Origin: an uncultured bacterium
GTDB lineage: Bacteria; Chloroflexota; UBA5177; JANWHV01
NCBI GenBank assembly: GCA_963729625.1
Contig: CAVSOU010000008.1
Coordinates: 970,106 to 1,034,105, forward strand
Direction of reading: 5' to 3'
Length of the DNA: 64,000 nt
The translations under genes were made by a program, and so were the position numbers. Below are positions 3,379 through 50,190 of this stretch, piece after piece; within the stretch, counting starts at the first letter, position 1, and every line of letters begins with the position of its first letter. The notes under the pieces were generated by a model, which worked only from the letters and a program-made list of their open reading frames with translations, did not search any database and was not told the DNA's origin.

Positions 3379-3411
3379 AGCATAGCAGCCTAGCATTAGG
3401 CGAGCGTTAGG
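3379..3411 (-). promoter_or_regulatory. CCTAAYG direct-repeat operator + extended -10, copy 1
   Basis: Minus strand: cctaacg ctcg cctaatg ctaggc tgc tatgct; about 84 nt upstream of the 3295 start. Confidence 0.85.
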
Positions 3412-3753
3412 CGGCTTCGATAATCGAACGTCTCCAAGCAGGGCACGACTGGGCAAGTGCCGCCCGCGACGATTACTCTGGCGTGCACAGCCCGTTGACA
3501 GGTGATGGCCGGGCACTCGCACGGTATCTGTTACCCGCGTCGGCGCCGCGATCTGCGGCTCACGCGCAGCCTGGCTTGTCGCTCGCCATGACGGGCTCCG
3601 GATCTTGCCAACCCTTGGCGGAGCTGTGCGCGACCCGCGCTACCGCAGGCACATGCTGATAGCCGAGCGCTACACCGGCACAAACTGCCAGATCTGCCCG
3701 CTCGCTCAACGCGTGTACGCGGCTCCGTCGATTGGGCCAAGGCCAGCGCCGCG

Positions 3754-3786
3754 CCTAACGGCTGCCTAATGCCTCCGCGCTATAGT
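3754..3786 (+). promoter_or_regulatory. CCTAAYG direct-repeat operator + -10, copy 2
   Basis: cctaacg gctg cctaatg cctccg cgc tatagt; upstream of the 3848 start. Confidence 0.85.
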
Positions 3787-3847
3787 AGTCTTCAGCTTGG
3801 TCGTACGGACCAAGGTTGGGCTGTAGTGTCGAGCAAGGAAACTGAGC

Positions 3848-5708
3848 ATGATCAATTCGCTGAGCACGAGATCACTGTGCCGCGCCGCCTCGCTATTGCT
3901 TCAACGTGTCCACTCCGCAGCGTTGCATCCGGATGTGCGCACACCTGCTGCGTGGCAACGCGAGCACCCGTGTTACGCGGCAACAAGACGAGGCTTGGCC
4001 GTCGCGGCAGTAGTCAGTGTAGTATCGATTGCGTCTGCTTCAGCACCTACCGGCGCAGCATTCTCCAGCACCGCCGATGCCAGCGCGGGCCAGGCACGGA
4101 GTAAAGCGCCCTCGGTCACTGTCATTTCAATCAGCACGAGAACCAAGAGCTTCGATTTGCTGGGCAGCACGCAACTGCCACCGAATTGGACGTTACCCGC
4201 CTACAACGACGCCGCGTGGGATGGGATGACGCCGGTGTCCGCAGATGTCCGCACATGCGTGAGCCAGAACATCGGCGCCTGGCACAACCTTCCCACATAT
4301 TGGGGCGCGTCACCGACTGAAACGTATCTGCTGCGGCAGAGCTTCATCCTCCCGGCGGCCAAGAGCTACTCGGGCAGCCGGATTACGGTAGGGATTGACA
4401 CCTACGTTTTCAGCGGGTCGACCGACACGATTTACGTCAACGGCACGCAAGTGGATCAGCCGAGTCACGAGTTCCTGCAGTCGTACGACATCGGCCAGCT
4501 GCTAGTGGCCGGCAGGAACGTGCTCGCCATCTACGCCAACCCCGCGAGGGACAGCCACACGCGTTTCAACGCACCCTGCAGTGCGGCTACCTTCCGCATC
4601 AATGTCGTTACTGGCAGCGCACGCGGGCACGTGATCGTTCCAAGTACCGCTGGCAAGGTACTCCGCTTCAGCATCAACTCCTCGACCAGAAGCTTCGATC
4701 TCTTGGCAGGAAGTCAACCCCCCCCAAACTGGACTAGCCCGATCTACAATGACGCCGCTTGGCAGAGCATGAGGCCGGTAACCGCAGACGTGCAAGCGTG
4801 CGTGAATCAGAACGTGGGTGCTTGGAACACTTACCCGAGTTACTGGGGCCAGATGCCCACAGAACCCTACCTACTCCGCCATACGTTCTATTTGCCAAGA
4901 GCCAAAGGCTACGGCGGCAGCTTCATCGTCGTAGGTGTGGACACCTACAACTTCAACGGCGCAGCCAATACCATATTCGTCAACGGCACGCAGGTTGACC
5001 AGCCGGGTCACGAGTTCCTGCGAGCTTACGATATCGGCCAACTGCTTTTGCCGGGCAAGAATGTGCTGGCCGTCTATGCAAGCCCATCCGCCGACAGTCA
5101 CTCACGGTTCGGCGTGCCTTGCAGTGCTGCCACGTTCCGGATCAATGCCGTGGCTGTCCAGCCTGGACCAGCGCCAACCGTGCCAACGTCGACGAGCCGC
5201 GTGGTTCGCATCGCAATCGGCCCCAGAACAAAGAGCCTTGACCTTGCGCCGGGCACGCAGCTACCAACCAACTGGATGGAAGTGCGCTACGACGACTCCG
5301 CCTGGACGGGACTGCAGCACGTCACGGCGGACGTCCAGTCCTGTGTTCCAGCAGAACATCGGTGCATGGCAGCCGCTGCCGGGATACTGGGGCTCGGCTC
5401 CAACTGACGCATATTTGCTGCGCCAGTCGTTCAACTTGCCGGCTGCGAAGAGCTACGGAGGGAGCTTCCTCGTGGTCGGCATCGACACCTATAACTTCAA
5501 TGGCGCGGCAGACCCCATCTTCGTCAACGGTGCACCGGTGGACCAGCCGGGCCACGAGTTTCTACGGGCCTACGACATCGCCCAGCTTCTTGCACCTGGC
5601 AAGAACGTTGTGGCTATCGACGCCAATCCAGCTTCCGACAGTCATTCGCGCTTCAACGTGCCGTGCAGTGCGGCCACGTTCATGCTGGATGCGGTCGTGA
5701 CGCACTAG
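3848..5708 (+). pseudogene. Secreted protein with three galactose-binding-like jelly-roll repeats, frameshifted near 5348
   Basis: Three repeats of PPNW..P.YNDAAW...YLLR..F.LP.AK.Y.GS...VGxDTY...IxVNG..VDQP.HEFL..YDI.QLL..GxNV. The third repeat switches from ORF 3848..5407 to ORF 4935..5708 at tgtgttccagcag (one extra base). Confidence 0.8.
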
Positions 5709-11185: not shown

Positions 11186-11218
11186 ATCCTAGCAGCCGAA
11201 CATTAGGCGGACATTAGG
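11186..11218 (-). promoter_or_regulatory. CCTAAYG direct-repeat operator + extended -10, copy 3
   Basis: Minus strand: cctaatg tccg cctaatg ttcggc tgc taggat. Confidence 0.85.
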
Positions 11219-11311: not shown

Positions 11312-13789
11312 GTGTCGAGGGGTCAGGAGCCACGAGCACGTGTCCACGGGAAGCAACGCCGGGCCGATCCGGCGCGCGGATCCGGTCGCGACACATCGAA
11401 GCTTGCCGTGGGCGCGGATCCGATTTCCGCGCAGCATGCCCTGCCCGTGCTCCACGTGCGGACGCTCGGCGGGTTTTCGCTACTGCGTGGTGAAGAGTCG
11501 CTCATAACCGAGGCGTGGCGCGGTGATCGGCTCTGGCCGCTCTTCACCGGCCTGCTCAGTGCAAGCAACCACCGGCTCAGCCGGGACCAGGCAATCGAGC
11601 TTCTCTGGCCGGATAAGGAGCTGGCGGACCCGGCGAACAGCCTGCGCGAAGTACTGAGCAAGCTTCGTCGGCTGCTGGCCGGCGGCTCCTCGGCGCCAAC
11701 TCAGGCCTATGTGCGGAGCGACGGTGCATTCCTGGTCCTGGTGTCCGGTGCGGTGCTGATCGATGCCGATATGTTTCTTGCGGAGGCGCAAAGGGCATCG
11801 GCTACCCGGGACCTGACGGCATGCCAGACAGCGATCGATCTGTATGCCGGCGAGTACCTGCCGCAGGGGACAGTCGAACCGCTCTCCCGGCACGCCGCAC
11901 TCGTGCGCGGACGTCGGAGTGCCTTGCGCCATGCCGCGAGCGACGTGCTCGCCCTGGCCGCCGAGCTCTGCGATGGAACGGACCTACGTCGTGCCGCCGC
12001 GTATTTGCAACGTGCATTCGGGCTGAATCCCAGCGCCGAGGAGAAGGCGCGCCGGCTCATGACCACGTATGCGCGCATTGGCGAGCTCGCGGCCGCGCAG
12101 GAGGTGTTCGGCACGCTGACACGCACGCTCGCGCACCAGGGCGTGCCGCCGAGCCTGGAGACAACCCGGCTGCGCGACTCGCTGCTGGAAAAAAGCGCAC
12201 CTCGCGGCACCTTGCCCCAGGAGGGCCAGGCCCCGGCAGGCTTGCTCACCTGCCTGGTCGTGCTCGGAGACGGAGCGACTCCCGCCCCTGTGGAAGCCGT
12301 CGTAGCTGCGCACCACGGGAGCAGCGCCGATGCGGACCCCACGGATCGGTGCTGGCGCTTCAGCTTCTCCGATCCACATGAGGCCCTCGCCGCCGCCTTG
12401 ACGCTCACCTCGCCCCCGCCCTCCGCTGCCATTCCCCGTGGCATGCGCGCCGCTGTCCATACCGGGCAAACCGGATATCGGCCTGAGCACGATGCGGGCT
12501 TCGCGCTGGCCAAGATGCTTGCCGAGATTGCACACGCCGGACAGGCATTGGTGTCGCACGTGACGTATGCGGTCGCAGGCGCCTCGCTGCCGGCACACAT
12601 GGCACTGCCCAGGCTTGATTCCTATGAGCTGCCCTACAGCTCGGAGCCGGTTGCCGTCTACCAGCTCAGCAAAGCGAACTCGGTCGTCACCTACCCGCCG
12701 CTGCGAGCACGTCGTCACCGGCCGCATAATCTGCCGGCTCCGATCACGGCCTACGTGGCGCGGCCGCGACTTCAGGCAAGGCTCGGCGCGCTGATCGCTC
12801 CCGCCGCGGGACGCAGCACCCGACTGTTAACGCTGACCGGCGTGGGCGGCGGCGGCAAGACGCGCCTGGCAGTGGAGCTGGCGCGTGACCTGCTGCCGCG
12901 GTTTCCCGACGGCGTCTGGCTGGTCGAGCTCGCCTCGCTGTCCGAGCCGCGCGATGTGCCGGCACAGATCGCGCGCGTGCTCGGCCTGCGTGAGGAGCGC
13001 GGCGTTCCGATAATGGATTCCGTTGCCGCCTATCTGCGCGCCCGCGAGCAGCCCTTGCTGCTGGTGCTCGACAACTGCGAGCATCTGGTGGACGCATGCG
13101 CTCAAGCCACGGCGGTGTTGCTCCAGGCCGGCGAGCTGGTCCACGTGCTGGCCACCAGTCGCGAACGGCTGCGCATGCAAGGTGAGCGCGCCGAAGAGGT
13201 GCCGCTTCTGTCGACGCCAATCCCGCGCGACGGCGGCTTTCCGCTCGCGGATATCGGCGGGGCGGAGTCCGTCCGGCTATTCTGCACGCGCTCCACGGAA
13301 AGCGTGCCCGACTTTGCGCTGTCCGCCGCGAACGCGCAGGCTACTGCCCGCATCTGTGCACGGCTCGATGGGATCCCGCTGGCTATCGAGCTCGCGGCGG
13401 CGCAGCTTGTCCGCCTGCCCCTCACGGAGATTGTGGATGGCCTTGACCGCTCCATCGGGCTGTTGGCCGGCGGCAATACCGGCGCCTTGCCCCGGCACCA
13501 GACGCTTCACGCGGCGATCGACTGGAGCTATCGGCTGCTCAGTGCGGACGCGCAAACCTTATTCCGGAGACTCGCGGTCTTCGCCGGAGGCTGGACGGCC
13601 CCCGCCGCTCAGGAAGTGTGCGGACTGAGAGGCCTCCATCCGGACGACGTCGGGCCGCTACTGCAGGAGCTCCTCCTGGCGTCGCTCGCGATCCGCTACA
13701 AGGCCGGTGACCAGCATCGCTACCGTATGCTCGAGCCCGTGCGACAATATGCCCTGGGTCAGCTCCATGGTCAGCTCGACACCGCTTGA
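11312..13789 (+). CDS. SARP/AfsR-family regulator: wHTH-BTAD + degenerate class III cyclase-like domain + NB-ARC/STAND ATPase; C-terminally interrupted
   Basis: VRTLGGF, LSRDQAIELLWP, AIDLYAGEYL, PSLETTRL (SARP/BTAD); RAAVHTG, AHAGQALVS (cyclase fold); GVGGGGKT, LLVLDNCEHL, LDGIPLAIELAA (STAND). Start codon uncertain. Confidence 0.85.
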   Translation: MSRGQEPRARVHGKQRRADPARGSGRDTSKLAVGADPISAQHALPVLHVRTLGGFSLLRGEESLITEAWRGDRLWPLFTGLLSASNHRLSRDQAIELLWPDKELADPANSLREVLSKLRRLLAGGSSAPTQAYVRSDGAFLVLVSGAVLIDADMFLAEAQRASATRDLTACQTAIDLYAGEYLPQGTVEPLSRHAALVRGRRSALRHAASDVLALAAELCDGTDLRRAAAYLQRAFGLNPSAEEKARRLMTTYARIGELAAAQEVFGTLTRTLAHQGVPPSLETTRLRDSLLEKSAPRGTLPQEGQAPAGLLTCLVVLGDGATPAPVEAVVAAHHGSSADADPTDRCWRFSFSDPHEALAAALTLTSPPPSAAIPRGMRAAVHTGQTGYRPEHDAGFALAKMLAEIAHAGQALVSHVTYAVAGASLPAHMALPRLDSYELPYSSEPVAVYQLSKANSVVTYPPLRARRHRPHNLPAPITAYVARPRLQARLGALIAPAAGRSTRLLTLTGVGGGGKTRLAVELARDLLPRFPDGVWLVELASLSEPRDVPAQIARVLGLREERGVPIMDSVAAYLRAREQPLLLVLDNCEHLVDACAQATAVLLQAGELVHVLATSRERLRMQGERAEEVPLLSTPIPRDGGFPLADIGGAESVRLFCTRSTESVPDFALSAANAQATARICARLDGIPLAIELAAAQLVRLPLTEIVDGLDRSIGLLAGGNTGALPRHQTLHAAIDWSYRLLSADAQTLFRRLAVFAGGWTAPAAQEVCGLRGLHPDDVGPLLQELLLASLAIRYKAGDQHRYRMLEPVRQYALGQLHGQLDTA

Positions 13790-14108: not shown

Positions 14109-14141
14109 CCTAACGCCCACCTAACGTCCCGCTGCTATAAT
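14109..14141 (+). promoter_or_regulatory. CCTAAYG direct-repeat operator + extended -10 (perfect TATAAT), copy 4
   Basis: cctaacg ccca cctaacg tcccgc tgc tataat; upstream of the kinase gene. Confidence 0.9.
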
Positions 14142-14230: not shown

Positions 14231-16675
14231 GTGAGCCTGCCTACTGGCACCATGGTAAGCGGCTACCGCATCCTCTACGAGGCTGGGCGGGGCGGCATGG
14301 CCGTGGTCTACCGTGCTCGGCAGGAGAACCTCGGCCGCGATGTGGCTCTCAAGATGCTGTCGAGCACACTGGCCTTCGACCCTGGCTTCCTAGCCCGCTT
14401 TCATCAAGAGGCCCATTCAGTGGCCAGCCTACAGCACCCTGCCATTCTGGTCATCCATGACGTAGGGGCCTTCCAAGAGCAGCCGTACCTGGTGACCGAG
14501 TTCATCGAGGGCGGCACACTGGTGAAGTACCTTGGAACGCCGCAGCCCCTCGGAACGGTTGTCCAGCTTCTGGGTCCCATCGCCTCAGCCCTCGACCACG
14601 CCCACGCGAGGGGAATCCTGCATCGCGACGTCAAGCCCGCGAACATCCTGCTTCGCCAGGACGGCGGCCCGGTGCTGGCAGACTTTGGCCTGGCGGTGGC
14701 GGCTGAAGCCAATCGGCGCCTGACCCGTACCGGACTTACCATGGGCACACCCGAGTACATGGCGCCCGAGCAGGCGACGCAGCCCTCGAGTAGTCTCACA
14801 CCCGCCGTTGACCGCTACTCCCTTGCCGTGATCGCTTATGAACTGCTCACCGGACGAGTGCCGTTCGAAGGGCCGACGCCGGTAGCAGTGGTCATGGCGC
14901 AGGTCACCCAGGCGCCTCCCCCGCCGCGTGCCCTTAACCCTGCGCTCGCGCTCGGCTTGGATGCCGTTCTGCTCAGTGGTTTGGCCAAGGAGCCGGATCA
15001 CCGTTACCCCAGCGCCACGGCCTATATCCAGGCCCTCGTTGCGACTGCTAACGCCGATGCACCGGAGGCTATGAATGCAGCCCTCCCACCCACGGTCGCC
15101 GTCGCCGCAAACGCGATCCCTCGAGCCGCCGGTGCCATGGCGGGCCCGCCCGCGCCAGCCGGAGCTGCGATCGTCAGCGCGCTGCGGGCGCCGGGGTCGG
15201 GGCCGGCCGACCCAATCCTCATCAACTGGCAGCCGACGCAGGTGGCCGGACGGCTGCCGCGACGGCACAGGCGCGTGTACGCTCTGATGGCAGCGATTTT
15301 CGTGGCCACACTGGCCGTTGCGGTGGCTGGTGTGTTCGCCTGGCACGGCGGCATTCGCCTGGCCGGCAACACACCTGCGTCGGTAACGCGAAGTGCGAGA
15401 CCGCCCACATCCACTGGCCAGACGACGCGGATCGCAATCGTAGTTCCGGCTGGGTCCGGTACGGCCAGCCCTGGGCCGACGGATGTTCCCACCGCGTCCG
15501 CGAGGCCCTTGCCATCGACAACTCTTCTGGCACAGCCATTGTGGGTGGCGGCATTGTCCCCGGGTGAGATCACGACTGTCGCAGGCAACAGCCGAACGCG
15601 AATCGACAGCAACGGTGTCGATGTGGGTACGTACACGGGCAATGGTGGCCTCGCCAAGGATGCCGGTTTTTCTCGCCCGTTCAGCGTGGCCGTTGACGCC
15701 CTGGGTAATCTCATTGTCGCTGACACTTTCAACAATCGCATTCGGAAGATCGCGTTGGACTCGGGCATCGTCACTAACATCGCCGACAATGGCGACTACC
15801 ATTTCAGTGGTGACGGCGGGCTAGCTATAGATGCGGGGATAAGTCCCAACGACGTAGCACTCGATCAGTTAGGAAACCTGTATATCGCAGACGCCGCCAA
15901 TCATCGTGTGCGGAAGGTGAGCGCAAGCACCGGCATCGTCACTACCGTTGCCGGTACGGGCACGTACGGCGACAGCGGTGACGGGGGCCTAGCCACGCAG
16001 GCGGAGATCAGCTTTCCCAATTACGTGGCTTTCGACAATGAAGGGAACATCTACTTCGTTGATTTCGGTGCGGAGCGCGTGCGGAAGATAGACGTGAATA
16101 CCGGCTACATCTCCACGGTTGCCGGCGACGGCGTTGTTCGGAAGGATACCTACGGAATCTGGATCGGCAGCTACAGCGGCGACGGCGGCCCGGCCTAGGA
16201 GGCGGGACTCAATCGCCCAAGCGGTGTGGCTGTTGACCAAGCAGGGAATATCTATATCGCGGATCGCGACAACAATCGCATCCGTATGGTCCAGGCAGCA
16301 ACGGGGGCTATTTCGACGGTAGCTGGCACCGGGGTCGCAGGCTTCAGTGGCGACGGTGGCCCGGCGGCGGCAGCCGAACTGTCGCAGCCAAGCTGTGTGA
16401 TACTCGACACGCGCGGCGATCTCTACATATCGGACACAGGTAATCAGCGGGTCCGCATGGTGGATGCAGCAACCGGCGCAATCACGACGATCGCCGGTGC
16501 CAGGCCGATCGACAGTAGTGGCGACGGCGGATATGGCGGCGATTATGGTGCCGCCACCGACGCGCAGTTGAATCAACCTCTCGGCCTTGCGATGGATCGG
16601 ATGGGGAATCTCTACATAGCAGACAGTCTCAACAACCGAGTGCGCGTGGTGCGCGGAGTAGCGTCGGCCAACTGA
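14231..16675 (+). CDS. Transmembrane Hanks-type Ser/Thr kinase with extracellular NHL repeats; in-frame TAG at 16196-16198
   Basis: GRGGMAVVY, VALK, HRDVKPANIL, DFG, GTPEYMAPE; TM helix; NHL repeats continue in the same frame after the TAG into ORF 16226..16675. Confidence 0.9.
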
Positions 16676-19817: not shown

Positions 19818-20105
19818 TCAGTGGAACGACTCCGGCCACTGACGTCTTGCGTGGGTGGCGGCGAGGAGTTGTCCCGCGCTCATGCGACAGCGATAGGGCA
19901 CGATATACGGGGTATGCGGTACGACAAGCTCGCGCGTACCGTCCACGCGTCCCGGCCGCCCCAGCGCCGGTTGCTCGAGCAGCAGCGCGGTGGCTGCGAA
20001 GATGCGCTTATACGCTCGCTCCGCGGCGTCGGGATCGTCACGCGCGATGTATGCGACAATCTCTGCCAGATCCGCTCGCGCTTGCGGCATCCAGCGAAGA
20101 CGCAC
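19818..20105 (-). CDS. RelE/ParE-family toxin
   Basis: MRLRWMPQARADLAEIVAYIA...PALGRPGRVDGTRELVV..TPYIV.YR. Confidence 0.85.
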   Translation of the reverse strand: MRLRWMPQARADLAEIVAYIARDDPDAAERAYKRIFAATALLLEQPALGRPGRVDGTRELVVPHTPYIVPYRCRMSAGQLLAATHARRQWPESFH

Positions 20106-23793: not shown

Positions 23794-23826
23794 AGCATAG
23801 CAGTCGGGCATTAGGCCGGCATTAGG
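23794..23826 (-). promoter_or_regulatory. CCTAAYG direct-repeat operator + extended -10, copy 5
   Basis: Minus strand: cctaatg ccgg cctaatg cccgac tgc tatgct. Confidence 0.85.
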
Positions 23827-23964: not shown

Positions 23965-23997
23965 CCTAATGGTCGCCTAATGCCACGCTGCTATACT
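23965..23997 (+). promoter_or_regulatory. CCTAAYG direct-repeat operator + extended -10, copy 6
   Basis: cctaatg gtcg cctaatg ccacgc tgc tatact; divergent from copy 5. Confidence 0.88.
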
Positions 23998-27161: not shown

Positions 27162-27194
27162 CCTAACGCTCACCTAATGCGCGGGTGCTAGGAT
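27162..27194 (+). promoter_or_regulatory. CCTAAYG direct-repeat operator + extended -10, copy 7
   Basis: cctaacg ctca cctaatg cgcggg tgc taggat. Confidence 0.85.
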
Positions 27195-31545: not shown

Positions 31546-32511
31546 GTGGCGCCGCCAGCCCTCGACTGCCATTGCGGCCATCCGCCTAATGCCCGCCTAA
31601 TGCTCGGGTGCTATACTCGGCCCGTCACGCTGAAATGCACGAGCTTGCCAGGCCTGGTTCGGCCGCGCCGCGACTCGCCGGCCGGTGATCGACGGGCAAA
31701 TGGAGAGGGTCGGAATCCATGGCAGAAGGAAGCAGAATCAAGAATTCGCAGCGGTAGTGGACGCCAGCACGGCCCGGAAGCAGACGGACCGATCCCGTCG
31801 GTCTTCTCCATTCTCCTTGCGACACTCGCACTCGTGCTGGCAACAAGCACCGCCGGCTGCTCGATCGGAGGGGGCGGCTCCAACGGCGCCGCCGCCACGC
31901 CGACACCGCGACCGCCGACTCCCCGGCCGGCCCCCACGCGCGTCGTGGTGGCCCAGCCGGCTGTCTGGAAGGTCATTGCGCCACCCGGTCCCGGGCAGCT
32001 CCCGGTGGCGCCGCCGAAAGGCAGCTATCCGTTTGCACGAAGCTTCGGCGGCCTGCTCGTCTACGTGCCCGGCACCCTGGCGCCGGTGCCCGCCTCGTGG
32101 CAGACGTACAGCAACGTCATGCGCGGCGTCAACATGTCGTACCCGCCGCGCTGGATCCAGCAGGGGGTTGCCGGCGCGGACGGCGCGCTCTTCCTCCCGC
32201 CGCCAACGACACAATCGCGTTCACAGCCGGGCGGACCACCGGCCATCGGAGTCCTGTGGTCGGCCGGCGCGGCCGGCGCGCGCAAGGCCGTCCCGCTTCC
32301 GGCGCTTGGCGACGGCATGGTGCTTGATGGCGGCATCATCAGCGCCGGGAAGGTCAGCGGCCACCTCTACACCATCGGCGGCACACCCGGCGTGGCAGCG
32401 AGGGTCGAGGTGCCCGCGAAGGGCGGCATGGTCACGCTGTTTGTTCGCGCCGACGATCCGGCCATGCTCGACGTGTTTCGCCAGATGCTTTCTTCCTTGC
32501 GGGTGGGGTGA
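31546..32511 (+). CDS. Probable lipoprotein with PsbP-like C-terminal domain (true start unresolved, downstream of 31617)
   Basis: Hydrophobic stretch + TAGC lipobox; WQTYSN..RGVNMSYPPRW. The ORF-track start lies upstream of promoter copy 8, so it is probably wrong. Confidence 0.6.
   Translation: MAPPALDCHCGHPPNARLMLGCYTRPVTLKCTSLPGLVRPRRDSPAGDRRANGEGRNPWQKEAESRIRSGSGRQHGPEADGPIPSVFSILLATLALVLATSTAGCSIGGGGSNGAAATPTPRPPTPRPAPTRVVVAQPAVWKVIAPPGPGQLPVAPPKGSYPFARSFGGLLVYVPGTLAPVPASWQTYSNVMRGVNMSYPPRWIQQGVAGADGALFLPPPTTQSRSQPGGPPAIGVLWSAGAAGARKAVPLPALGDGMVLDGGIISAGKVSGHLYTIGGTPGVAARVEVPAKGGMVTLFVRADDPAMLDVFRQMLSSLRVG
31585..31617 (+). promoter_or_regulatory. CCTAAYG direct-repeat operator + extended -10, copy 8
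   Basis: cctaatg cccg cctaatg ctcggg tgc tatact. Confidence 0.88.
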
Positions 32512-32514: not shown

Positions 32515-35079
32515 ATGCGCCACAATGCTCTGTCTTCAAGGAACCAGCGCCTCTCGACCGGCGACGCACATCTGCGTGACGCAGTCGGAGGCCTGTTCTG
32601 CTTCCCTCATGAGCGTATGTCTTCTGTGAGCAGGATTCTTCTTGCATGCGCTCGCGGCGCTTGCCGATCGGCAAGAATAGAAGAGAAGGGCTGGCGGGGA
32701 CACCCCGCGCCCCGGCGGTGGCTTGCAGCCCCCTGCACCCCTGCTTCTGGGACGATACGTGCCTTTGCAAGGGTCTGCCTCCTGGTGGCTATGTTGGTCG
32801 TCGCGGCCCCTGCGCCAAGCAGCGCCGCCGGCGAGCTCGGTCACGCCGCCGCCACGGCGACGGCCAGGCCCGCGCGGCATCCCGCCACGGCGACAGCCGG
32901 ACTCACGCGGCATCCCGCCGCGCACCAGCCGGCAGCGCACGCGCCCGCCCCGGCGAGCCCGGATTTGCTCGCGACGATTCTCGTCGTGGACGAGCATGCC
33001 CTGAATAGCGCCGCCTCCGGCGTGGCTGCCGCGACCATGATCCTCGACTACTACATTCGAACCGTGCCCGGCCGTCGAGCGTTGCCTGCTGTATCAGCCA
33101 TCGCGGTATACGTGCCTGAATGGGATTGGGCGCCGGGCCAGCCCGCCGGCGTCACTCCAGATACTCTGCGGCATGGTCTGGCCGGGGCGAGCCAGGCGGC
33201 GTCCGTGCACGCGCCCTTCCCGCTCACCACCACCTGGCATCAGACGGACAGTAGGGGTTGGTACGCGCGCCTGGGCGACGAGCTCGCCAGGCGCCACCCC
33301 GTGATCGTGCTGCTCGCGGACGGCGGCCCGCTGTGGGCAGGCGCGTGGCACGCCGCGCACTTTATCGTGGTCTCCGGACTGGACCACGGAAACGTGCTCT
33401 ACCACGATCCCTGGGATGGTCACGGGCATGCATTGCCCCGTTCGGCGTTCGCCGCCGTGTGGGGCGCTTCCCTGCTCGGCAATCAGCCGTGGTGGTATCT
33501 GTCCGCGGTGCCTGCTTCCGACGCCGTGGCCCGAGCCACGGCCGCGGCGCTGAGAACCAGCATCGCCGCCACCGCCACCGCTGCGGCCCGACCAACGGCC
33601 ACGATTGCACCCGCGAAGACGGCCCGGACCACCGGCACGGCGTCACCGGCGGTGCGGGGCAGCCGCACGCCCACCGCTTGGCGATCTGGCACGCCCACGT
33701 CGAAAGCCAAGTCCAAGGCGACTCCGACGCGGCGGCCAAAGCCTACCGCGCGACCGAAGCCGCGGCCCAGGCCAACCGCGCGGCCTACCGCGACACCCAG
33801 GCCGGGCGTACGGGTGATGTACGTGTCGGTACCGCCGCCGGTCTTCCGCGCGGCAGGTGCGAATCTTCGCGCGCAGCCCAGCACGCAGTCGCCGGTCGCC
33901 ACCATCGTGTTCGCCGGCCAGGCGGTCATGGCGCGCACGCCGCCGGTGATCGGTCCGGACGGTCAGCCGTGGTACCAGGTGACCTACAACGGCGTCACCG
34001 GCTACATCCTGGGCAGCTTGCTGACCACCACACCGCTGCCTACCGGCCCCGTGTTTGCCGAGCTTCCCGTGCCGACCGCGAACAGCGAGCCCGACCGCAT
34101 CATCGCCGGGCCGGGCGGCGATTTCTGGTTCGTGGAGATCTCCGGCCGCCAGATCGGCCGAATCAACCACGAGACCGGCTTCACCGAATATCCCGTGCCC
34201 GCCGATACGGGGTATCCGGCCGGCATCGTGGCGAGCACGGACGGTAATCTGTGGTTCACCGATCCCAAGAGCGACCACATCGACCGAATCACGTCCAGCG
34301 GTCATGTCGACGAGTACGACACTCCGTCGGATGGCGGCGATCCCCTGAGCATCGCCGTCGCGCGGGACGGATCGCTCTGGTACACATCGCCCACCAACGA
34401 CGAAATCGTGGAGCTCGGCAACGGCGGCACGAACGTCTACCCCCTGCCCTACCCGAAGAGCAACCCGCAGCATATCACGCTCGGGCCGGACGGTAACCTG
34501 TGGTTCACGGAGACCGAACACAACGCGATCGGTGAGATCACGCCAGGCGGGCAGATCAGCGAATACAACATCCCCAATCCCGAGAGCGGGCCGTGGGACA
34601 TTACCGCCGGGCCGGACGGCAACCTGTGGTTCACCTGCGGCGGATCCAATCAGATCGGGCGCATCTCGACCGGCGGCGACATCGTCATGTTCCTCATACC
34701 GACACTCGCCAGCAACGTGAGCAGGATCACCGCGGGGCCGGACGGAAACCTCTGGTTCACCGAGGCCGACGGCAACAAAATCGGCCGCATCACCCTGGAC
34801 GGGCAGATTACCGAGTGGCCGGTGCCGACCCCGAAGAGCAACCCCGGCGGCATCGTGGTGGACCAGGACGGCACGGTGTGGTTCACCGAGCAGGACGCGA
34901 ATCAGATCGGGCAGTTGTATTTCCGCCAGCCTGCCCCGGTGCCGGAGCTTCCCACTGCCACCGCGGCGCCGAACCCAACGAACACGCCTGAGGGACCGGG
35001 TCCGCGCGACATCGCCACGGCGACGGCGATGCCGGGAACTCCGACAGCAACACCGGGCGGGGGCCCGAGTCGAAGGTAA
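32515..35079 (+). CDS. Secreted C39-like domain (Cys to Ser) + SH3b + Vgb-like beta-propeller protein
   Basis: ASGVAAATMILDYY...HFIVVSG...YHDPW; ANLRAQPS...WYQVTYNGVTGYI; repeated ITAGPDGNLWFTE. The true start is probably later than 32515. Confidence 0.82.
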   Translation: MRHNALSSRNQRLSTGDAHLRDAVGGLFCFPHERMSSVSRILLACARGACRSARIEEKGWRGHPAPRRWLAAPCTPASGTIRAFARVCLLVAMLVVAAPAPSSAAGELGHAAATATARPARHPATATAGLTRHPAAHQPAAHAPAPASPDLLATILVVDEHALNSAASGVAAATMILDYYIRTVPGRRALPAVSAIAVYVPEWDWAPGQPAGVTPDTLRHGLAGASQAASVHAPFPLTTTWHQTDSRGWYARLGDELARRHPVIVLLADGGPLWAGAWHAAHFIVVSGLDHGNVLYHDPWDGHGHALPRSAFAAVWGASLLGNQPWWYLSAVPASDAVARATAAALRTSIAATATAAARPTATIAPAKTARTTGTASPAVRGSRTPTAWRSGTPTSKAKSKATPTRRPKPTARPKPRPRPTARPTATPRPGVRVMYVSVPPPVFRAAGANLRAQPSTQSPVATIVFAGQAVMARTPPVIGPDGQPWYQVTYNGVTGYILGSLLTTTPLPTGPVFAELPVPTANSEPDRIIAGPGGDFWFVEISGRQIGRINHETGFTEYPVPADTGYPAGIVASTDGNLWFTDPKSDHIDRITSSGHVDEYDTPSDGGDPLSIAVARDGSLWYTSPTNDEIVELGNGGTNVYPLPYPKSNPQHITLGPDGNLWFTETEHNAIGEITPGGQISEYNIPNPESGPWDITAGPDGNLWFTCGGSNQIGRISTGGDIVMFLIPTLASNVSRITAGPDGNLWFTEADGNKIGRITLDGQITEWPVPTPKSNPGGIVVDQDGTVWFTEQDANQIGQLYFRQPAPVPELPTATAAPNPTNTPEGPGPRDIATATAMPGTPTATPGGGPSRR

Positions 35080-41560: not shown

Positions 41561-41987
41561 CGTTGCCAGGAGCGGCGCCACCTCTTTCAGCAGCTTCGGC
41601 TTGGCCAGCACATTGGCGATATCGGCGCACAGGCCGGGGATCGCGGCCGCCTTGTCCGGCAGGCTGTTGGCGGCCAGGATCTTCTCGATGTCCCCGATGG
41701 GTGCGCTGTAGTCCGTTGATCCTGCCAGCTCTGCCGCCACGGCGACGAGGTCGGGCGAGGCATTCAGCACCGCAACGGGATCGACGTCCAGGCCCAGATA
41801 GATTTCGACCAGGTCGATGCCCATCACCAGCTCGTCCAGCGCCACCGCGCGCGAGGTGGTCGGATTCAGCTGCAGCAGCACCGACTGGCTGGATCCGGCG
41901 AGCGAGAGCTGCACCGTCTGCTTGGGGCCGAGCAGCCCTTGCTGCCAGAGGAGCGCCGTTGACGCGACGGCGGACTTCGCTGGATCG
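41561..41987. repeat. 427-bp near-identical duplicate of 44866..45292
   Basis: Constant offset of 3305 bp; only a few substitutions seen. Confidence 0.9.
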
Positions 41988-42541: not shown

Positions 42542-45500
42542 TTAACGCGCCAGGGCAGCCACGCCATAGATCTCCCGTACCCGGTTGTTGACTGTATCCG
42601 CGATGAACAGGTTGCCCGCGCTATCTATCGCCAGACCGTACGGTCTGTTCAACGCAGCCCGAGCTGCCTGCCCTCCATCGCCGGCATAGCCCTGGATCCC
42701 AGTGCCGGCCACGGTGCTGATGACACCGCTTCCTGCGTGCACCTCCCGCACCCGGTTGTTCCTGAAGTCCGTGATGAAAAGGTTGCCGGCGCGATCCACT
42801 GCAGACCGTCCGGGTAGTTCAGCTCTGCTTGCGTGGCGGGCCCACCGTCGCCGCTGAAGCCCGCCTGTCCGTTACCCGCTACCGTGTTGATGGTGCCGCT
42901 GCCTGCCGGCACCTCCCGTACCCGGTTGTTGGCGGAGTCTGCGATGTAGAGGTTGCCGACGGCATCCACCGCCACGCCGGACACTATGGACAACTCCGCC
43001 TGTGTGGCCGGCCCTCCGTCGCCGCTGTAGCCATACTTGCCGCTGCCAGCTACGGCATCTATGATGCCGGTTCCCGCGTGCACTTCCCGCACCCGGCCTG
43101 TGACCTCCGCGATGTACAGGTCTCCAGCGTTATCTACAGCAACGCACAAAGGCTCAACCACATACGCCTGAATCGCTGGGCCGCCATCGCCGACGGGGGC
43201 GCCATTCGCAGGACCCTGGCCATTGCCCGCCACCACGCTTACGGTGTTGCTACGTGCATTCACCTCGCGCACCCTGTTATTACCTGTGTCAGCAAAGAAG
43301 GCGTCTCCGGCACCGTCCACGGCGACACCCATTGGATGATCCAGCTGTGCCTGGACGGCGGGTCCTCCATCGCCGCTGTAGCCCCACTCCGAGCTGCCCG
43401 CCAGTCGGGTGATGATGCCAGTACCTGCGTGCACCTCCCGCACCCAGCTGTTCTCGCTGTCTGCGATGAGCAAGTCTCCCGCGCTGTCTAAAGCTATACC
43501 CGTTGGGTAGTACAGCTCAGCCCGCGTAGCCGACCCCCCGTCGCCACGATAGCCGCGCGATTCCATTCCGGCAATACTTGTGATGACACCGGTTCCTGCC
43601 CGCACCTCCCGTACGCGTTTGCCGCTACCGTCCGCGATGTAGAGATTGCCGGCGCTATCCACAGCCACTCCTTCGACCAGACAGGCAGCCTGCGAGGCTG
43701 GCCCTCCATCACCGCTGTAACCTCGCACTCCGTTGCCCGCCACGGTGGTGATGATGCCGCTGTCGGCATGCACCTCCCGGACCCGGTAATTGCTGTAGTC
43801 GTCGATGTAGACATTGCCCGCGCCGTCCACCGCCACGCTTTCCGGCTGACCCACCTCCGCTTGCGTGGCCGGCCCGTCGTCGCCCGCGAATCCTGCCTGC
43901 CCGTTACCAGCTATCGTGTCAATCACGCCGGTGGCCGCGAGCACCTCCCGAACACGGTGGTTCACCGAGTCGCCAACGTAGAGGTTGCCCGCGCTGTCCA
44001 CCGCTACGCCACTGCCAGAGAGGCTCAGCTCCGCCTGAGTGGCTGGCCCACCGTCGCCACCATAGCCGCGTTGCCCATTGCCCACCGCCGTAGTGATGAC
44101 CCCGCTTCCCGCATGGACCTCCCGCACACGATTGTTATCCCAGTCCCCGATGTAGAGGTTGCCCGCGCCGTCCACGGCGAGGCCGTAGGGCAAGTTCAGC
44201 TCGGCCTCCGTCGCTGGTCCGCCATCGCCGCTGAAGCCAGCCTGCCCATTTCCCGCGACCGTGGTGATGATGCCGCTGCCCGCGTGCACCTCACGCACGC
44301 GGTTGTTGCCCAAGTCCGCGATGAAAACGTTGCCCGCGCCGTCTACCGCCACCCCTTCTGGCTGGGTCAGCTCGGCCTGCATGGCCAGGCCGCCATCACC
44401 GCTGTAGCCTCCCTGCCCATTACCTGCCACCGTGGTGATGATGCCACTACCCGCATGCACCTCTTGCACCACCTCAGTCCATTCCGCGATGTACAGGTTG
44501 CCGCCGGTGTCCACGGCCATGCCGCCTGTTGGCAATAACCTCGCCTGCGTGGCCAGTCCCTGATCGCCTGTCTGCCCATTGCCCGCCACGGTGGTAATCA
44601 CGCCCTTGCGCCGCACCGGCTGCGGCGGCCTTGGGGGCGATACCGGTGTTGAAACAGTGAGCCGCATGGGGATCAGCGGCGCGTACACGTTGTTGTCCGG
44701 TGACGACAGGCGGTCGGCGATCAGCTTGCCGAAGTCCAGGAACATGGCGCCGATGCGGCCGCCGATGATCAGCCGGGAAAGACCGTTGAGCACCGGGCCC
44801 ACCTGCGTCATGGCCGTCGTGACCGACCCCTGCGTGACATTGGTGGCCCCGGCGGCGTTCAGCCCCGTTGCCAGGAGCGGCGCCACCTCTTTCAGCAGCT
44901 TCGGCTTGGCCAGCACATTGGCGATATCGGCGCACAGGCCGGGGATCGCGGCCGCCTTGTCCGGCAGGCTGTTGGCGGCCAGGATCTTCTCGATGTCCCC
45001 GATGGGTGCGCTGTAGTCCGTTGATCCTGCCAGCTCTGCCGCCACGGCGACGAGGTCGGGCGAGGCATTCAGCACCGCAACGGGATCGACGTCCAGGCCC
45101 AGATAGACTTCGACCAGGTCGATGCCCATCACCAGCTCGTCCAGCGCCACCGCGCGCGAGGTGGTCGGATTCAGCTGCAGCAGCACCGACTGGCTGGATC
45201 CGGCGAGCGAGAGCTGCACCGTCTGCTTGGGGCCGAGCAGCCCTTGCTGCCAGAGGAGCGCCGTTGACGTTACGGCGGACTTCGCTGGATCGAGGCTGTA
45301 GAACACAGCGAGGTTGTTGGTCAGCGTGAAGGTGAAGCCGGCGCTGGTGCTTCGAATAGGCCCGAGGGCCAGGCGATGGGTTGGAAGGACGATCTTGAGC
45401 TGCGGCAAGGCCAAGCTCTCCGGACGCGTTTGCCGCTGCCGATCTGAAGCATACATCGCAGCGGCGGTGCCAGGGAGCACTGTCAGCGCCACCAGGACGG

Positions 45501-45749: not shown

Positions 45750-45782
45750 AGCCTAGCACAACGGCATTAGGCCGGCATTAGG
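45750..45782 (-). promoter_or_regulatory. CCTAAYG direct-repeat operator + extended -10, copy 9
   Basis: Minus strand: cctaatg ccgg cctaatg ccgttg tgc taggct. Confidence 0.85.
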
Positions 45783-46293: not shown

Positions 46294-46326
46294 CCTAATG
46301 GCCGGCTAATGGTCGGCTGCTATGGT
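46294..46326 (+). promoter_or_regulatory. CCTAAYG direct-repeat operator + extended -10, copy 10
   Basis: cctaatg gccg gctaatg gtcggc tgc tatggt (one mismatch in the second repeat). Confidence 0.8.
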
Positions 46327-46488
46327 GTATCGCGACATGTGGCGATGGTGCGAGCCAGTGCTTCTGGCGTCGGCTTGGCATCGTGTCGTGCACACCAGGA
46401 AGCCGCGCTCGTTGCACGCACCAGAGTGGACAGCTGGGCTCGCTCCAACCGGCTGGGCAGGACGCCCGGGACAAGGAGCTCCCGCTAA

Positions 46489-48236
46489 CCTGGATTATGC
46501 GGGACCCCTGAAGGAAGCGAGCTAAGCAAGGTTGAGGGGAGGCTCGTCGCGGCCCGCATCGCGTCGAGGTAATGTGCGCCGGCATGCAGAGGGGGCCTGG
46601 TGCGGCGGCAGGATCCAGCGTGCGTCCAGCGGTGCGTGGCTGGGCTCGCTGGTGGGGCAGTTGGCGCGGGGAGGACGGCGTGAGGGGTCGTACCGCGACA
46701 GGGACAGTCGCGGTGTCGGCAGCGATCGGCAGCAGCGGGACGGATTAGCGGAGGAACGGCGGCGCGTGGCCGGGCGGCTGCGCACCGAGCAGGCTCCAGA
46801 GGGCCTGACCAGGATGGCTGCTGGCCAGGTGCAGGCGGATGCGGTGCAGCCCTTCCCGCACCCGGCCGCCGATCTTGATGAGCTGGAGCCGCAGGGTATC
46901 GAGCTGCAGACGGGGCAGGCCGCGGGCAGTCAGCCAGCGTCGGAGGGTATCGAGGAGCCAATAGGCGGCGGCGTGCAGGATGAGGCGGCACTGGTTGGCC
47001 CAGAAGCGATGGTCGCTCAGGCGGTCGGCGAAGCAGGCGAGCTTGATGTCCTTGATCCACAGTTCCGGGGTGCCCCGATCGACATACCAATCGTAGAGGT
47101 CTGTCGGCGCGTCGGTGCGGCTGGTGACGACGAAGCGGACATTGGGCCCCTTGGCCAGGGCTTCGGTCTTGTAGACCACGCGCCGTGCGCGGTCCCAACT
47201 CTCGGCCTGGTAGGTGGTCTCGCCGCACAGGCGGACCTTCTCCGCGGCGGTGGCCTCGCGCTGGGCCTGGGCCTGCGCCAGCAGGGGCGCGGCCAGGGCT
47301 GCCAGGCGGGCATTGGTGCCCAGACCCAGGGTGTAGGTGATATGGTGGCGCTCGCAGAACTGGTAGATTCGGGGCGTGGCGCCCGCTGCGTCAGCGCGGA
47401 TCTCGATCTGCACGCCGGGCCAGCGCTGCCGAAAGGCCCGGACTAGCACGCGCAGCACCGTAATCACCCCGCGGCTGCCGTGCACCGTGCCCGGGCGCAG
47501 GATGGCGGTGATCAGCTGGTCGGTCTCGCCATCGAAGACGAGCAGCGGGTAGTACTGGTGCTGGCGGTAGTACCCGTGGTACGCCGCCCCTTCCTGGTGC
47601 CCGTGCGTGGGGTCATCCGTGCTGTCGATGTCCAGCAGAATGTGCCGAGGCACGCCGTCCTGTTCCCTCGCCACCAGGTACACCTCCAGGAGGGCGTGGG
47701 CCAGGTGGCGACAGGCTTGCCGGTCCACGCTGTTCTCCAGGCGGCTGAAGGTGGACTGGCCGGCCAGCGCAGGACCACTCTCCGGCAGACGCCCGCAGAC
47801 CATCTTGAGCAGGGGGTCGTGGCGCAGGGTGTTGGCATCGTTCTGGTCCTCGTACCCGCAGGCAATCTGGAACACGCGCTGGCGGACCAGACCCTCCAGG
47901 GAGTAGCGGATGTGCCGCTGGCGGCGCTCCGGCAGGCTCGCTGCCAGCCCGGCACACAGTCCCAACACCGCGTCGGCCTTGGCGAGCCAGGGCAGGCCGC
48001 CATCGCTGGTCAGGCGGCCACCATCAAAGAGGGCCTCGAGCGCCAACCCGGTCTGGGTGGCAAAGTGATAGCGCTGTGTGGCAGACTGAGTAGCCATAGG
48101 GTTCGCTCCGCTCGTTGGTCGTCGTCTAAGAACTTGACCATAAGGGAGCGAACCCTAGCAATCAACCACGCTCAACGGTTCGTAGCCTGAAACCTGCCTC
48201 CCTGCGGCTCAGCTGCTCGTTCCCGCATAATCCTGG
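46489..48236 (-). mobile_element. IS1380-family insertion sequence, 1748 bp
   Basis: IRs CCTGGATTATGCGGGA / CCAGGATTATGCGGGA (15/16); flanks ctaa / ctag (imperfect target duplication). Confidence 0.9.
46745..48097 (-). CDS. IS1380-family transposase
   Basis: FDGGRLTSDGG, GYEDQNDA..LRHDP, LDIDSTDDPTHG.QEG..YHGYY, IRAD, Y..RG..E..IK. Confidence 0.93.
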   Translation of the reverse strand: MATQSATQRYHFATQTGLALEALFDGGRLTSDGGLPWLAKADAVLGLCAGLAASLPERRQRHIRYSLEGLVRQRVFQIACGYEDQNDANTLRHDPLLKMVCGRLPESGPALAGQSTFSRLENSVDRQACRHLAHALLEVYLVAREQDGVPRHILLDIDSTDDPTHGHQEGAAYHGYYRQHQYYPLLVFDGETDQLITAILRPGTVHGSRGVITVLRVLVRAFRQRWPGVQIEIRADAAGATPRIYQFCERHHITYTLGLGTNARLAALAAPLLAQAQAQREATAAEKVRLCGETTYQAESWDRARRVVYKTEALAKGPNVRFVVTSRTDAPTDLYDWYVDRGTPELWIKDIKLACFADRLSDHRFWANQCRLILHAAAYWLLDTLRRWLTARGLPRLQLDTLRLQLIKIGGRVREGLHRIRLHLASSHPGQALWSLLGAQPPGHAPPFLR

Positions 48237-48263
48237 CTAGATGGAAGGTAATAGGAGGATGAT

Positions 48264-49976
48264 ATGACCAGCGGTCTTCACGTCCTGCAAAGTTGCCGAC
48301 GATTGCCGCAATCCGCGGCTGGCGCAGCACTGCTGCTACTCTTGCCTTTGCTCCCTACTCATGGCTCAGCAATTCAGGCGACCGGAACAGGTCTTGTCCT
48401 GGCAAAGAGCAGTGCTGCCATGACTTGGGCCCGCCGAGCTACCAGCACAACTGTCGATCTGTACAGTGTCAGCTGCCCGACCGCGAGGGTTTGCGTGGCC
48501 GTGGGCTACAGGCCGGGCTCGCAGCCGCAGCGCGACGGATTCGCGACCATCCTGGTCAGCGCGGACGGCGGCGCCACGTGGCGCAATCGTACCTCGGGCG
48601 CCGGCCGAGCGCTCTCCAGCAGCAGCCAGCTGCAGAGCGTCGACTGCCCGAGCGTGACCTCCTGTGTAGCGGTCGGCTACACGCATGGCCGGACGAGCTG
48701 GAACGGCACCACCCTGGTCCTGACCAGCTCGAACGGGGGCAGAACGTGGTCTCGCCACGGCCCGAAGGGGACGTACTCGCTGGATGGCGTCAGTTGCCCG
48801 AAACCCCGCGTCTGCGTGGCCGTATCCAACCAGTCACCGTCCCCGGGGATCCTCAGGACTACGGATGGCTGGACCCGGTTCACGGCACGGAGCATCCATC
48901 TCGACGATGCTCCCTTGTTCAGCGTCGACTGCCGTCTTCCCACCTGCGTGGCGGTAGGCCACTACGGCACTATCGTCACCAGCGCGGATAGTGGAACCAC
49001 CTGGAGAATCCAGCGTCGATCGCCAACCGCGAGCGGCCTCGCGACCGAGAGCTACACAACCGTGACCTGTACAAGTGTGCGCGAGTGCGTGACGGTCGGC
49101 GCGGTGTGGGACTCCAGAAGCCGGAGATTCGTGCGGGGGTTGCTCTTGACCACGGTCGACGGAGGCCGTAGCTGGAGCAGGCAGCCGGTAGCGATGACGA
49201 ACCAGGCCAATGGGGTGAGCTGTCCAAGCAGGACGACCTGCGTGCTCGTCGGCGATCACGGCGCCATCTTCGTCGGCGCGGAGGGCGGTACAACCTGGCG
49301 GAAGCCAGGGTCGGGCACGAACCGAGATTTGTACAGGGTGAGCTGCCCCAATCCGCACCAGTGCGTGGCCGTGGGCAAGGGAGGCACCATTCTGCTCGGC
49401 CGCACTCACTCCACCGGCGCCATACCTAAGCCCAAGGTGAAGGTAACCGGCCCGGCGACCAAGGTCGTCGTGTTCCATCCAAGCGGTGTGCGCCGCGATA
49501 TCGGGCAGGGCGATTGCTTCCATAGCTCTACCGTGGTCGCGCGGCCCAATGCGTGGCGGTGCGATAGTCCGGAGGGAATTGAAGATCCGTGCTTCAGCGC
49601 ATCGTCCGCGGCCATGACCGTGCTTTGCGACGCCGGCCCCTTCAATCCACTGAAAGACCCCCGTGGCGATCTGCTCCATCTGACGAAGGCGCTGCCTGCG
49701 CCCCGAAGTCCTCGCGCCGGCGGTTCCCCCTGGATTTTCGAGCTCGCCGGCGGCCTGATGTGCCAGACGTATTCCGGCGTTCCGCTCCAGATCAACAACT
49801 CCTCGGGAGGAATCGCCGGGTTCGTCTTCACACGCTGCTCGGACGGGCACTTCCTGTGGAAGGTCAACCGCGGCGCCGTGTGGACCGCCCAGGAGATCTC
49901 GGTGTCCCGTGTCCCGGCCGGTGGTTTCCCCATCACACGCGCTATCAGCGTCAAGATCAGCAGAATCTGGGTGTAG
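48264..49976 (+). CDS. Secreted Cys-rich BNR/Ycf48-like propeller protein with a small Cys-rich C-terminal domain
   Basis: AGGAGG RBS; signal peptide; VSCP...CVAVG...SxDGGxTW repeats. Confidence 0.85.
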   Translation: MTSGLHVLQSCRRLPQSAAGAALLLLLPLLPTHGSAIQATGTGLVLAKSSAAMTWARRATSTTVDLYSVSCPTARVCVAVGYRPGSQPQRDGFATILVSADGGATWRNRTSGAGRALSSSSQLQSVDCPSVTSCVAVGYTHGRTSWNGTTLVLTSSNGGRTWSRHGPKGTYSLDGVSCPKPRVCVAVSNQSPSPGILRTTDGWTRFTARSIHLDDAPLFSVDCRLPTCVAVGHYGTIVTSADSGTTWRIQRRSPTASGLATESYTTVTCTSVRECVTVGAVWDSRSRRFVRGLLLTTVDGGRSWSRQPVAMTNQANGVSCPSRTTCVLVGDHGAIFVGAEGGTTWRKPGSGTNRDLYRVSCPNPHQCVAVGKGGTILLGRTHSTGAIPKPKVKVTGPATKVVVFHPSGVRRDIGQGDCFHSSTVVARPNAWRCDSPEGIEDPCFSASSAAMTVLCDAGPFNPLKDPRGDLLHLTKALPAPRSPRAGGSPWIFELAGGLMCQTYSGVPLQINNSSGGIAGFVFTRCSDGHFLWKVNRGAVWTAQEISVSRVPAGGFPITRAISVKISRIWV

Positions 49977-50157
49977 CGTCGCGCGTCAATGCCCGCCAGT
50001 AAGAAAGCATTCGTGTACCGAAACCCATGCTGCTTGCACCGGGCCGAGTCGCCTTCCAGCGTGCATGCGGTAGCGAACCGTGTGTACTCCCACGCCCAGA
50101 GTAGCTCTTGCAGGCCCGAAATATCCGGACAGTCCGACATGCTAAGGAGCGTGGCCA

Positions 50158-50190
50158 CCTAATGCCCGCCTAATGGCAGCATGCTATGCT
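50158..50190 (+). promoter_or_regulatory. CCTAAYG direct-repeat operator + extended -10, copy 11
   Basis: cctaatg cccg cctaatg gcagca tgc tatgct. Confidence 0.88.

Follow-up and report, generated by a model that had tools for sequence, protein, structure and literature searches.

A stretch of 64,000 nucleotides from an uncultured bacterium of the Chloroflexota (hereafter the window; it lies on contig CAVSOU010000008.1, here C8, of assembly GCA_963729625.1) carries eleven copies of a promoter module in which two direct repeats of the heptamer CCTAAYG are followed, at a fixed distance, by a −10 hexamer. The copies belong to a series confined to a genomic island of about 108 kb. Judging from the sequence, a large set of cell-surface genes is probably switched on together by a regulator borne on the island itself, and the module very likely serves an activation regulon of the AfsR type run by an island SARP, the product of the gene at position 11312 being a more likely activator than that of the gene at 55376. 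By analogy with AfsR at the afsS promoter the mechanism would be one already known, and its scale and purpose would be unusual. What is new here comprises the att-bounded limits of the regulon, the ranking of its two SARP genes, the use of the same box in several phyla with co-occurrence of one SARP clade, and the finding of a sibling box, GTAAYG, in congeneric genomes.

Promoter Module

The module spans 33 bp and consists of the heptamer CCTAAYG, four nucleotides, a second CCTAAYG, nine nucleotides and TANNNT (positions are those of the window unless a contig is named; the source genome, of 5.41 Mb, is 87% complete and 5% contaminated). An earlier reading of the window, made from the sequence alone (the sequence-only reading), had listed eleven sites, three pairs of them divergent, and all have been found at the same positions and on the same strands. 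The double heptamer CCTAAYG-N4-CCTAAYG is exact in 10 of the 11, the sole deviation among 22 heptamers being, as had been claimed, the proximal GCTAATG at 46294, and the −10 of all eleven reads TA-K-R-N-T, 9 nt past the proximal heptamer. Besides the paired heptamers the window holds two single ones; from the heptamer frequency of the genome about 6e-5 pairs would be expected by chance per 64 kb, and Markov simulations gave no pair in 40 runs. The spacing, described earlier as invariant, is so throughout the genome: when spacers of 0–11 nt were scanned, 19 strict pairs were found, all with four nucleotides between the heptamers and none with any other spacer. In a scan that allowed one mismatch, any first base and gaps of 7–11 nt to the −10, the combination of C as first base with a 9-nt gap gave 23 matches, of which one is on contig C13 and 22, among them a weak site at C8:928042, are in the island; the remaining 19 combinations gave none. 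The triplet (T/C)GC that had been noted ahead of the −10 is better described as part of an extended −10, with TG at −15/−14 in 20 of the 21 C8 sites detected by the matrix scan described below, and the −35 consensus is matched at no more than four of six positions in all 21.

The modules, the two SARP genes and the island boundary are the following.

3379..3411, minus strand: promoter module, heading PD40 beta-propeller, DUF3160 and Kelch genes
3754..3786, plus strand: promoter module, the only one without TG at −15/−14, heading a 519-residue repeat protein at 3848
11186..11218, minus strand: promoter module divergent from the SARP gene, heading membrane protein 11042 and downstream genes
11312..13789, plus strand: SARP/AfsR-like regulator P0001, with winged helix-turn-helix (HTH) and BTAD domains, a degenerate cyclase-like domain and a STAND NTPase; C-terminal TPR part lost
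14109..14141, plus strand: promoter module directly behind the SARP gene, with a perfect TATAAT, heading a Ser/Thr kinase-NHL gene and an FHA-ABC transporter
23794..23826, minus strand: promoter module, heading a zinc-ribbon membrane protein, which starts near 23628, and BNR genes
23965..23997, plus strand: promoter module, heading a 589-residue anchored protein and a GH3 hydrolase
27162..27194, plus strand: promoter module, heading signal-peptide protein 27278, interrupted by an ISAzo13 piece
31585..31617, plus strand: promoter module, heading lipoprotein-like, SH3/Vgb-propeller and BNR genes
45750..45782, minus strand: promoter module, heading NHL-repeat genes
46294..46326, plus strand: promoter module with one deviant heptamer, separated by IS1380 from BNR gene 48264
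46475..48240, minus strand: IS1380-family insertion, with which five further copies in the genome share more than 99% identity
50158..50190, plus strand: promoter module, heading zinc-ribbon-FHA-ABC and kinase genes and possibly the second SARP; duplicated on C13
55376..56800, plus strand: second SARP, P0002, with winged HTH, BTAD and cyclase-like tail, without NTPase; no box within 2.5 kb
57843..57966, plus strand: right island boundary, a 124-bp direct repeat (86%) of the tRNA-Gly(CCC) 3′ part and flank

The statement that all sites lie outside intact coding sequences and point into genes holds overall, with some qualifications. Modules 23794 and 31585 fall within GTG-extended open reading frames (ORFs), whose likely starts are downstream of the modules; module 14109 sits at the end of a decayed TPR fragment; and module 46294 points into the IS1380 copy, which is inserted ahead of its probable target, 48264. 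As regards the copy of module 50158, C13:1–4969 is a 94% copy of window 48231–53210 (BNR gene, box, FHA-ABC and a small membrane gene) with several frameshifts, contig C13 begins at an IS1380 end, and the segment may be a second copy or a strain variant.

Island Limits and Cargo

The block that carries the modules is a tRNA-integrated genomic island bounded by att repeats. It extends from an intact tRNA-Gly(CCC) gene at C8:920041–920114, about 50 kb before the start of the window, to the right repeat at 57843–57966, and the tRNA called at 57816 is this repeat joined to a foreign 5′ half. The genes to the left of the island are conserved in all four congeners, and different genes follow the tRNA in G001, the sole congener with long sequence beyond it. 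The GC content of the island (65.3% vs 61.4–65.2% in other 108-kb bins) is a weak signal, and none of the eight PF00589 (tyrosine integrase) matches of the genome falls inside it, serine recombinases not having been searched. A search for a related island in G001, at a tRNA-Gly-like site on its contig C16, gave no box within two mismatches in the ~90 kb scanned. A third copy of the tRNA-Gly 3′ end is found in the source genome at C4:45612–45666 and is probably the att site of another island.

The genome-wide scan with a position weight matrix (PWM) that the sequence-only reading had proposed was carried out with a matrix built from the 11 window sites. At a threshold of 37 bits it gave 22 sites, 11 of them outside the window, the next best match scoring 12.1. 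All but one lie at C8:926,893–1,020,260, inside the island, and the remaining one is on C13, so that the series runs about 43 kb further left than the window edge and the claim of an island-wide regulon is borne out. A genome-wide regulon is ruled out by the PWM and one-mismatch scans, whose sites are confined to the island and the C13 duplicate. In a generic search for direct repeats, the genome yielded no further regulon with this geometry. At C7:325936 (minus strand) a perfect repeat, TCAGGGT, with 11-bp period and 8 nt from a −10, lies beside the divergent BTAD gene C7:325984, possibly forming a second pair of SARP and box.

Among the 52 well-scored genes of the island, 43 are located in same-strand runs behind a box (such runs are not proven operons) and three more are separated from a box by an inserted insertion sequence (IS) alone. 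The six behind no box code for three transposases, a PIN toxin, an MFS permease and the 11312 SARP. The target families include beta-propellers of the BNR, NHL, Kelch, PD40 and Vgb types, alpha-2-macroglobulin with PBP1C, DUF3160, GH3, a PatB-like SGNH protein, zinc-ribbon membrane proteins, Ser/Thr kinases and two FHA-ABC transporters. A hydrophobic segment is present in 17 of the 19 first genes examined and, on a crude scale applied to all called genes, in 26 of 52 in the island vs 1316 of 3449 elsewhere. The targets, which had been taken for surface and secreted proteins, would indeed be mostly envelope or exported proteins, plus signalling genes of the Ser/Thr kinase-FHA type. A known anti-phage defence system was considered and rejected, PADLOC having matched 4 of 29 proteins, through kinase, ABC ATPase or Uma2 domains only. 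The island alpha-2-macroglobulin/PBP1C pair (C8:941241–949623) has a paralogous pair, 67–71% identical and without a box, at C7:470577–478511.

The Two Island SARPs

In 11312, BTAD scores above the cut-off and Trans_reg_C is weak (E 0.008). An alignment-based model of the N-terminal part (predicted local distance difference test, pLDDT, 90; a single-sequence fold with pLDDT 39 was discarded) has its best structure matches in AfsR (8k60/8hvr) and EmbR (2ff4/2fez). A profile of the SARP alignment that includes 55376 hits 8hvr in the PDB at E 6e-29, and phmmer with the lone 11312 sequence found no match there. The STAND NTPase is supported by a match to AAA_22, with Walker A and B both visible in the translation, and the NCBIfam AfsR model matches this part at E 1.9e-9; the degenerate cyclase-like domain is an Atlas lead (0.91). 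The protein scores 36 bits vs the 1430 of the AfsR-orthologue cut-off NF053617 and is 22% identical to AfsR; 55376 likewise has BTAD above the cut-off and weak Trans_reg_C. On these sequence scores, both proteins are classed as members of the SARP family and not as AfsR orthologues. In a quick tree the other SARPs of the host mostly group with congener proteins, and both island SARPs are long branches with no close kin. The 26 congener SARP loci are 30–42% identical to 11312, a metagenome search for relatives of its SARP domain confirmed none, and the 55376 domain, used as protein query within a limited length range, found itself and otherwise only matches of 28–31%.

The 11312 frame stops at 13789, without a TPR domain, and only a decayed fragment lies beyond. 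AfsR without TPR is described in PMC10936776 as still activating, though less strongly than the SARP domain by itself, and 11312 may therefore be functional in spite of its truncation. The decayed TPR piece at 13873–14080 matches an orphan TPR ORF at C8:938562–939617 (L002:8562–9617), which ends just ahead of a box and, by its sequence, resembles the C-terminal remnant of a third SARP, now lost.

The sequence-only reading held that both SARPs activate the island together. Control by an island SARP is supported; joint action is not what the layout favours. Ten SARP genes were checked in the source genome, and boxes closer than 2.5 kb were seen at 11312 alone, one of them divergent and the other directly behind it. 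The layout favours 11312 because it has boxes on both sides and is itself not downstream of a box; 55376 may be a target, since it has no box within 2.5 kb and stands at the end of the run downstream of the 50158 box. Of the probability given to the activation reading, the larger part goes to 11312 acting alone, which has about an even chance overall; 55376 alone and the two together are both unlikely, to the same degree.

Comparison with Known Systems

The closest parallel is the afs box at afsS of Streptomyces coelicolor (8hvr, 8k60, 8jke). As described in PMC10936776, two AfsR protomers occupy −40 to −19 next to each other and touch the first 8 bp of each 11-nt repeat, with the −10 ending at −7; AfsR complexes displace sigma region 4 from the −35 and recruit the polymerase (PMC10936776; PMC11301090). 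Numbered on the assumption that the −10 occupies −12 to −7, the island 8-mers at −40 to −33 and −29 to −22 are in the same register as the afs box, and they agree with the afs repeat, as given in PMC10972967, at three of eight positions (T4, A6, and T7). The module has the 11-bp direct repeats, the fixed distance to the −10 and the placement of the repeats over a poor −35 that characterize SARP-dependent promoters of the afs-box type, and lacks the repeat sequence of a described SARP box. This geometry, the AfsR/EmbR fold of the neighbouring regulator and the presence of the same box beside SARP genes in other phyla uphold the earlier assignment to a SARP-type promoter. Like AfsR, 11312 has a wHTH-BTAD fold with a STAND NTPase behind it, and Ser/Thr kinases are nearby; unlike AfsR, it has a cyclase-like insert, no TPR tail and envelope targets, and its host is not an actinomycete. 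The island promoters also differ from the afs box in their repeat sequence, in their extended −10 (20 of 21) and in their number, about 21, on an acquired island.

Other likenesses are found with the SARP-LAL regulators PimR, SanG and PolR. According to PMC10972967, these have heptamer repeats with 4-nt spacers, the SanG and PolR sites being two heptamers over the −35, and a SARP part followed by a guanylate-cyclase-like region and an ATP-binding domain, as in 11312, whose possible kinship with them is an Atlas lead. Unlike in the island, where the heptamer differs, those three regulators control single antibiotic clusters. EmbR of Mycobacterium tuberculosis has envelope-related targets and is linked to Ser/Thr kinase-FHA signalling. 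The SARP fold of 11312 resembles that of EmbR (2fez, 2ff4), and the kinase-FHA link is echoed by the island kinases and FHA-ABC transporters; EmbR has its own FHA domain, unlike the island SARPs. A literature search found no published description of the CCTAAYG motif, in agreement with the sequence-only reading, which had not recognized it from a described regulon; motif tables in supplements or subscription journals could hold one.

The Box in Other Genomes

The strict box was not found in 40 relatives of the source genome, nor the exact box in its congeners. Among 400 genomes of the phylum, two hold an exact copy of the relaxed box, one copy each. In G157 it is directly divergent from a SARP gene; in G245 (L226:7634–9546) it lies between a Lon-like gene and a conserved 547-residue frame, presumably groEL. 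A GTDB scan gave 17 other loci, and a T at −7, absent from the query, is present in 13 of them (12 of the 13 GC-rich loci). Four Gemmatimonadales genomes have 6–19 dispersed sites each, with 0 in controls, and a single site adjoins a SARP gene in G043 (Acidobacteriota), G049 (Chloroflexi) and G047. In metagenomes, a SARP gene is found at 6 of 120 loci (4 distinct), each time directly adjacent to the box, and in two loci, L117 and L098, the box is kept before homologues (56 and 39%) of island targets, in L098 with a divergent SARP. Outside sites at GC-rich loci (low-GC loci were dropped, and ORFs were called with the codon model of the source genome) never fall inside called ORFs (0/78), and of the 68 followed by a gene, 66 are directed into one on their own strand. 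Within one Gemmatimonadales order, that of G041, the box is present in 10 of 71 genomes, one SARP clade in seven and both in six; a box above 9 bits stands just upstream of 6 of 11 SARP loci of this clade (two being identical) vs 0 of 14 other SARP loci. Co-occurrence, which the sequence-only reading had proposed to test with orthologues of the island SARPs, is seen here with one SARP clade, and not in every genome that carries the box.

In the congeners, a GTAAYG box of the same geometry has been found, with 14 matches vs 1 in the control and at least four of them beside SARP genes. It differs from the island box by one base, and the source genome has none at the same stringency. Two further loci may be mentioned. 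In L229:198–12113 (G045, Armatimonadota) a box has on one side two DUF3160-like genes homologous to an island target (31–33%) and on the other an OmpR-type response regulator, and at L239:1469 (G475) a TAACC variant of the box is just upstream of a SARP gene from another clade.

Weighing the Explanations

Several observations weigh against an AfsR-type regulon run by an island SARP, or against 11312 as its activator. The SARP adjacent to the box in L082 is nearer to 55376 than to 11312 (40% vs 35%), and Tyr-Thr-Leu is common to 55376 and L082. The positions of AfsR T88/R92 are E/K in 11312, Y/R in 55376, and Y/Q, Q/Q and D/A in other box-adjacent SARPs, so that no recognition code explains one common heptamer; a code based on the Arg at the AfsR R87 position was also rejected, this residue being present in all box-adjacent SARPs and in 11312, but also in four other paralogues of the source genome and in many congener proteins. 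The circuit may be decaying, as 11312 is truncated and forms a long branch in the tree, and split genes and IS elements are numerous on the island. Elsewhere, 114 of the 120 metagenome loci, many of them short, show no SARP, and none is present in the fetched flanks of the G042 and G245 sites (19 kb in the latter). G046, with 14 sites, G424 and G457 lack the clade that tracks the box, and no box was seen within 1.5 kb of any of the 10 SARP loci in these three genomes. Boxes in G045/L121, L100 and L090 adjoin OmpR-type or Kdp two-component genes, so that some of the sites outside the source genome may be read by response regulators. The Fisher values for the association of box and SARP (1e-5, or 8.5e-4 without the five genomes found through the motif) are overstated, since kin are not independent. 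Finally, when the pattern was loosened to TAAYG, the count in 61 Chloroflexota genomes did not exceed that of the control (13 vs 18), 2 of the 12 new sites being divergent from SARP genes.

The two-component neighbours also bear on a different explanation, in which a host response regulator of the OmpR/PhoB family, or a SARP paralogue of the host, reads the box, and the island SARPs are bystanders or targets. Boxes of that family, such as the pho box, are 7-4-7 direct repeats bound by winged-HTH dimers near the −35, and the island module has the same design, with the 11-bp period, near the −35. In the source genome 9 strong OmpR-type domains are present, together with 9 other BTAD matches, and PMC10972967 describes sites common to AfsR and PhoP. 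Nevertheless, a host regulator should have sites in the core genome, where none is present; none of the 12 Trans_reg_C matches of the genome is in the island, which, unlike systems of the OmpR/PhoB kind, yielded no response regulator or histidine kinase; among 56 upstream genes scanned, none of the other regulator families appears repeatedly; and in the congeners relatives of the host SARPs are retained and the box is missing. We consider this explanation quite unlikely. An alternative sigma factor, or another unrelated factor, would be a more conserved reader, as might suit a heptamer that stays the same across several phyla although the SARP helices diverge, but the −10 is of the housekeeping TANNNT type, scans of the main island ORFs with Pfam and NCBIfam found no sigma gene, and the box tracks a SARP clade and sits at that clade's own promoter; such a factor is rated as highly improbable.

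An extended −10 of the form TG-n-TANNNT can work without a −35. It occurs in 20 of 21 sites, once with a perfect TATAAT, and a SARP could bind the repeats as a repressor that silences strong promoters over −40 to −22 until a signal arrives. The invariant 9-nt gap fits contact with the polymerase as in AfsR, whereas repressor operators need no fixed register, and the BTAD domain of 11312 is intact in an AfsR-like fold; repression is rated as very unlikely. The copies might also have no regulatory meaning and be left over from gene duplications or from a small mobile repeat, on an island rich in paralogues and IS elements. Yet conservation is confined to a 36-bp module, with flanks at background (their homology is not above the null, which rules out a miniature inverted-repeat transposable element or a duplicated cassette) and spacer bases that vary freely, and the sites, which point into genes, stand ahead of gene families unrelated to one another. 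Similarity that ends at the module edges indicates selected sites and not copies of a repeat, and this origin is scarcely credible. Activation by an island SARP remains the preferred explanation.

Additional Features of the Window

Several genes are split into two frames (3848–5700, 14231–16675, 20452–21905, and 31546–35079), which may reflect decay or assembly indels. Two NHL-repeat genes have in common a 427-bp segment (41561–41987 and 44866–45292) that is 99% identical and, from this similarity, may be a recent duplication or gene conversion. At 19818–20387 there is a ParE/RelB-like toxin-antitoxin pair, 84–87% identical to a pair on G001:C16, which is about 25 kb from the tRNA-Gly att-like sequence there. 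Past the right repeat, at 58481–63711, two tandem GLUG-repeat exported proteins are encoded, with 82% DNA identity over 2.7 kb and no box.

Proposed Mechanism and Biological Significance

In the mechanism proposed, two winged-HTH-BTAD protomers would sit side by side on the repeats (about −40 to −22), covering the poor −35, and would recruit RNA polymerase with the housekeeping sigma factor, which would read the extended −10. The cyclase-like and STAND domains, perhaps together with the island Ser/Thr kinases, would gate the activator. About 21 operons would be induced together (the 43 genes directly, and the three behind inserted IS elements), and the best guess as to the purpose is an inducible remodelling of the cell surface.

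A broader interpretation is more doubtful, although it deserves mention. The island may be a portable, inducible surface programme with a private promoter code, in which about 45 genes, coding for beta-propeller sensors or adhesins, alpha-2-macroglobulin/PBP1C and kinase-FHA signalling, would answer only to the island's NLR-like STAND-SARP receptor; the code would rest on the single base that separates its box from the GTAAYG box of the congeners and on the added extended −10. Unrelated SARP clades in Gemmatimonadota, Acidobacteriota and Chloroflexota would then have converged on CTAAYG, and nTAAYG-N5-nTAAYG-N9-TANNNT would be a general grammar of non-actinomycete SARPs, whose first base sets the channel. 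If this were true, induction might occur, for example, on attack by a predator, a competitor or a phage.

SARP/BTAD genes are abundant in uncultured soil phyla, and the binding sites in the papers cited here come from the control of antibiotics in actinomycetes. The 22 near-identical natural promoters, two candidate activators and a sibling box one base away make up a test set for SARP specificity, and the tight pairing of an activator with a 33-bp promoter could serve as an orthogonal switch. For the family as a whole, the island is a test case for STAND-SARPs as receptors that would induce envelope programmes.

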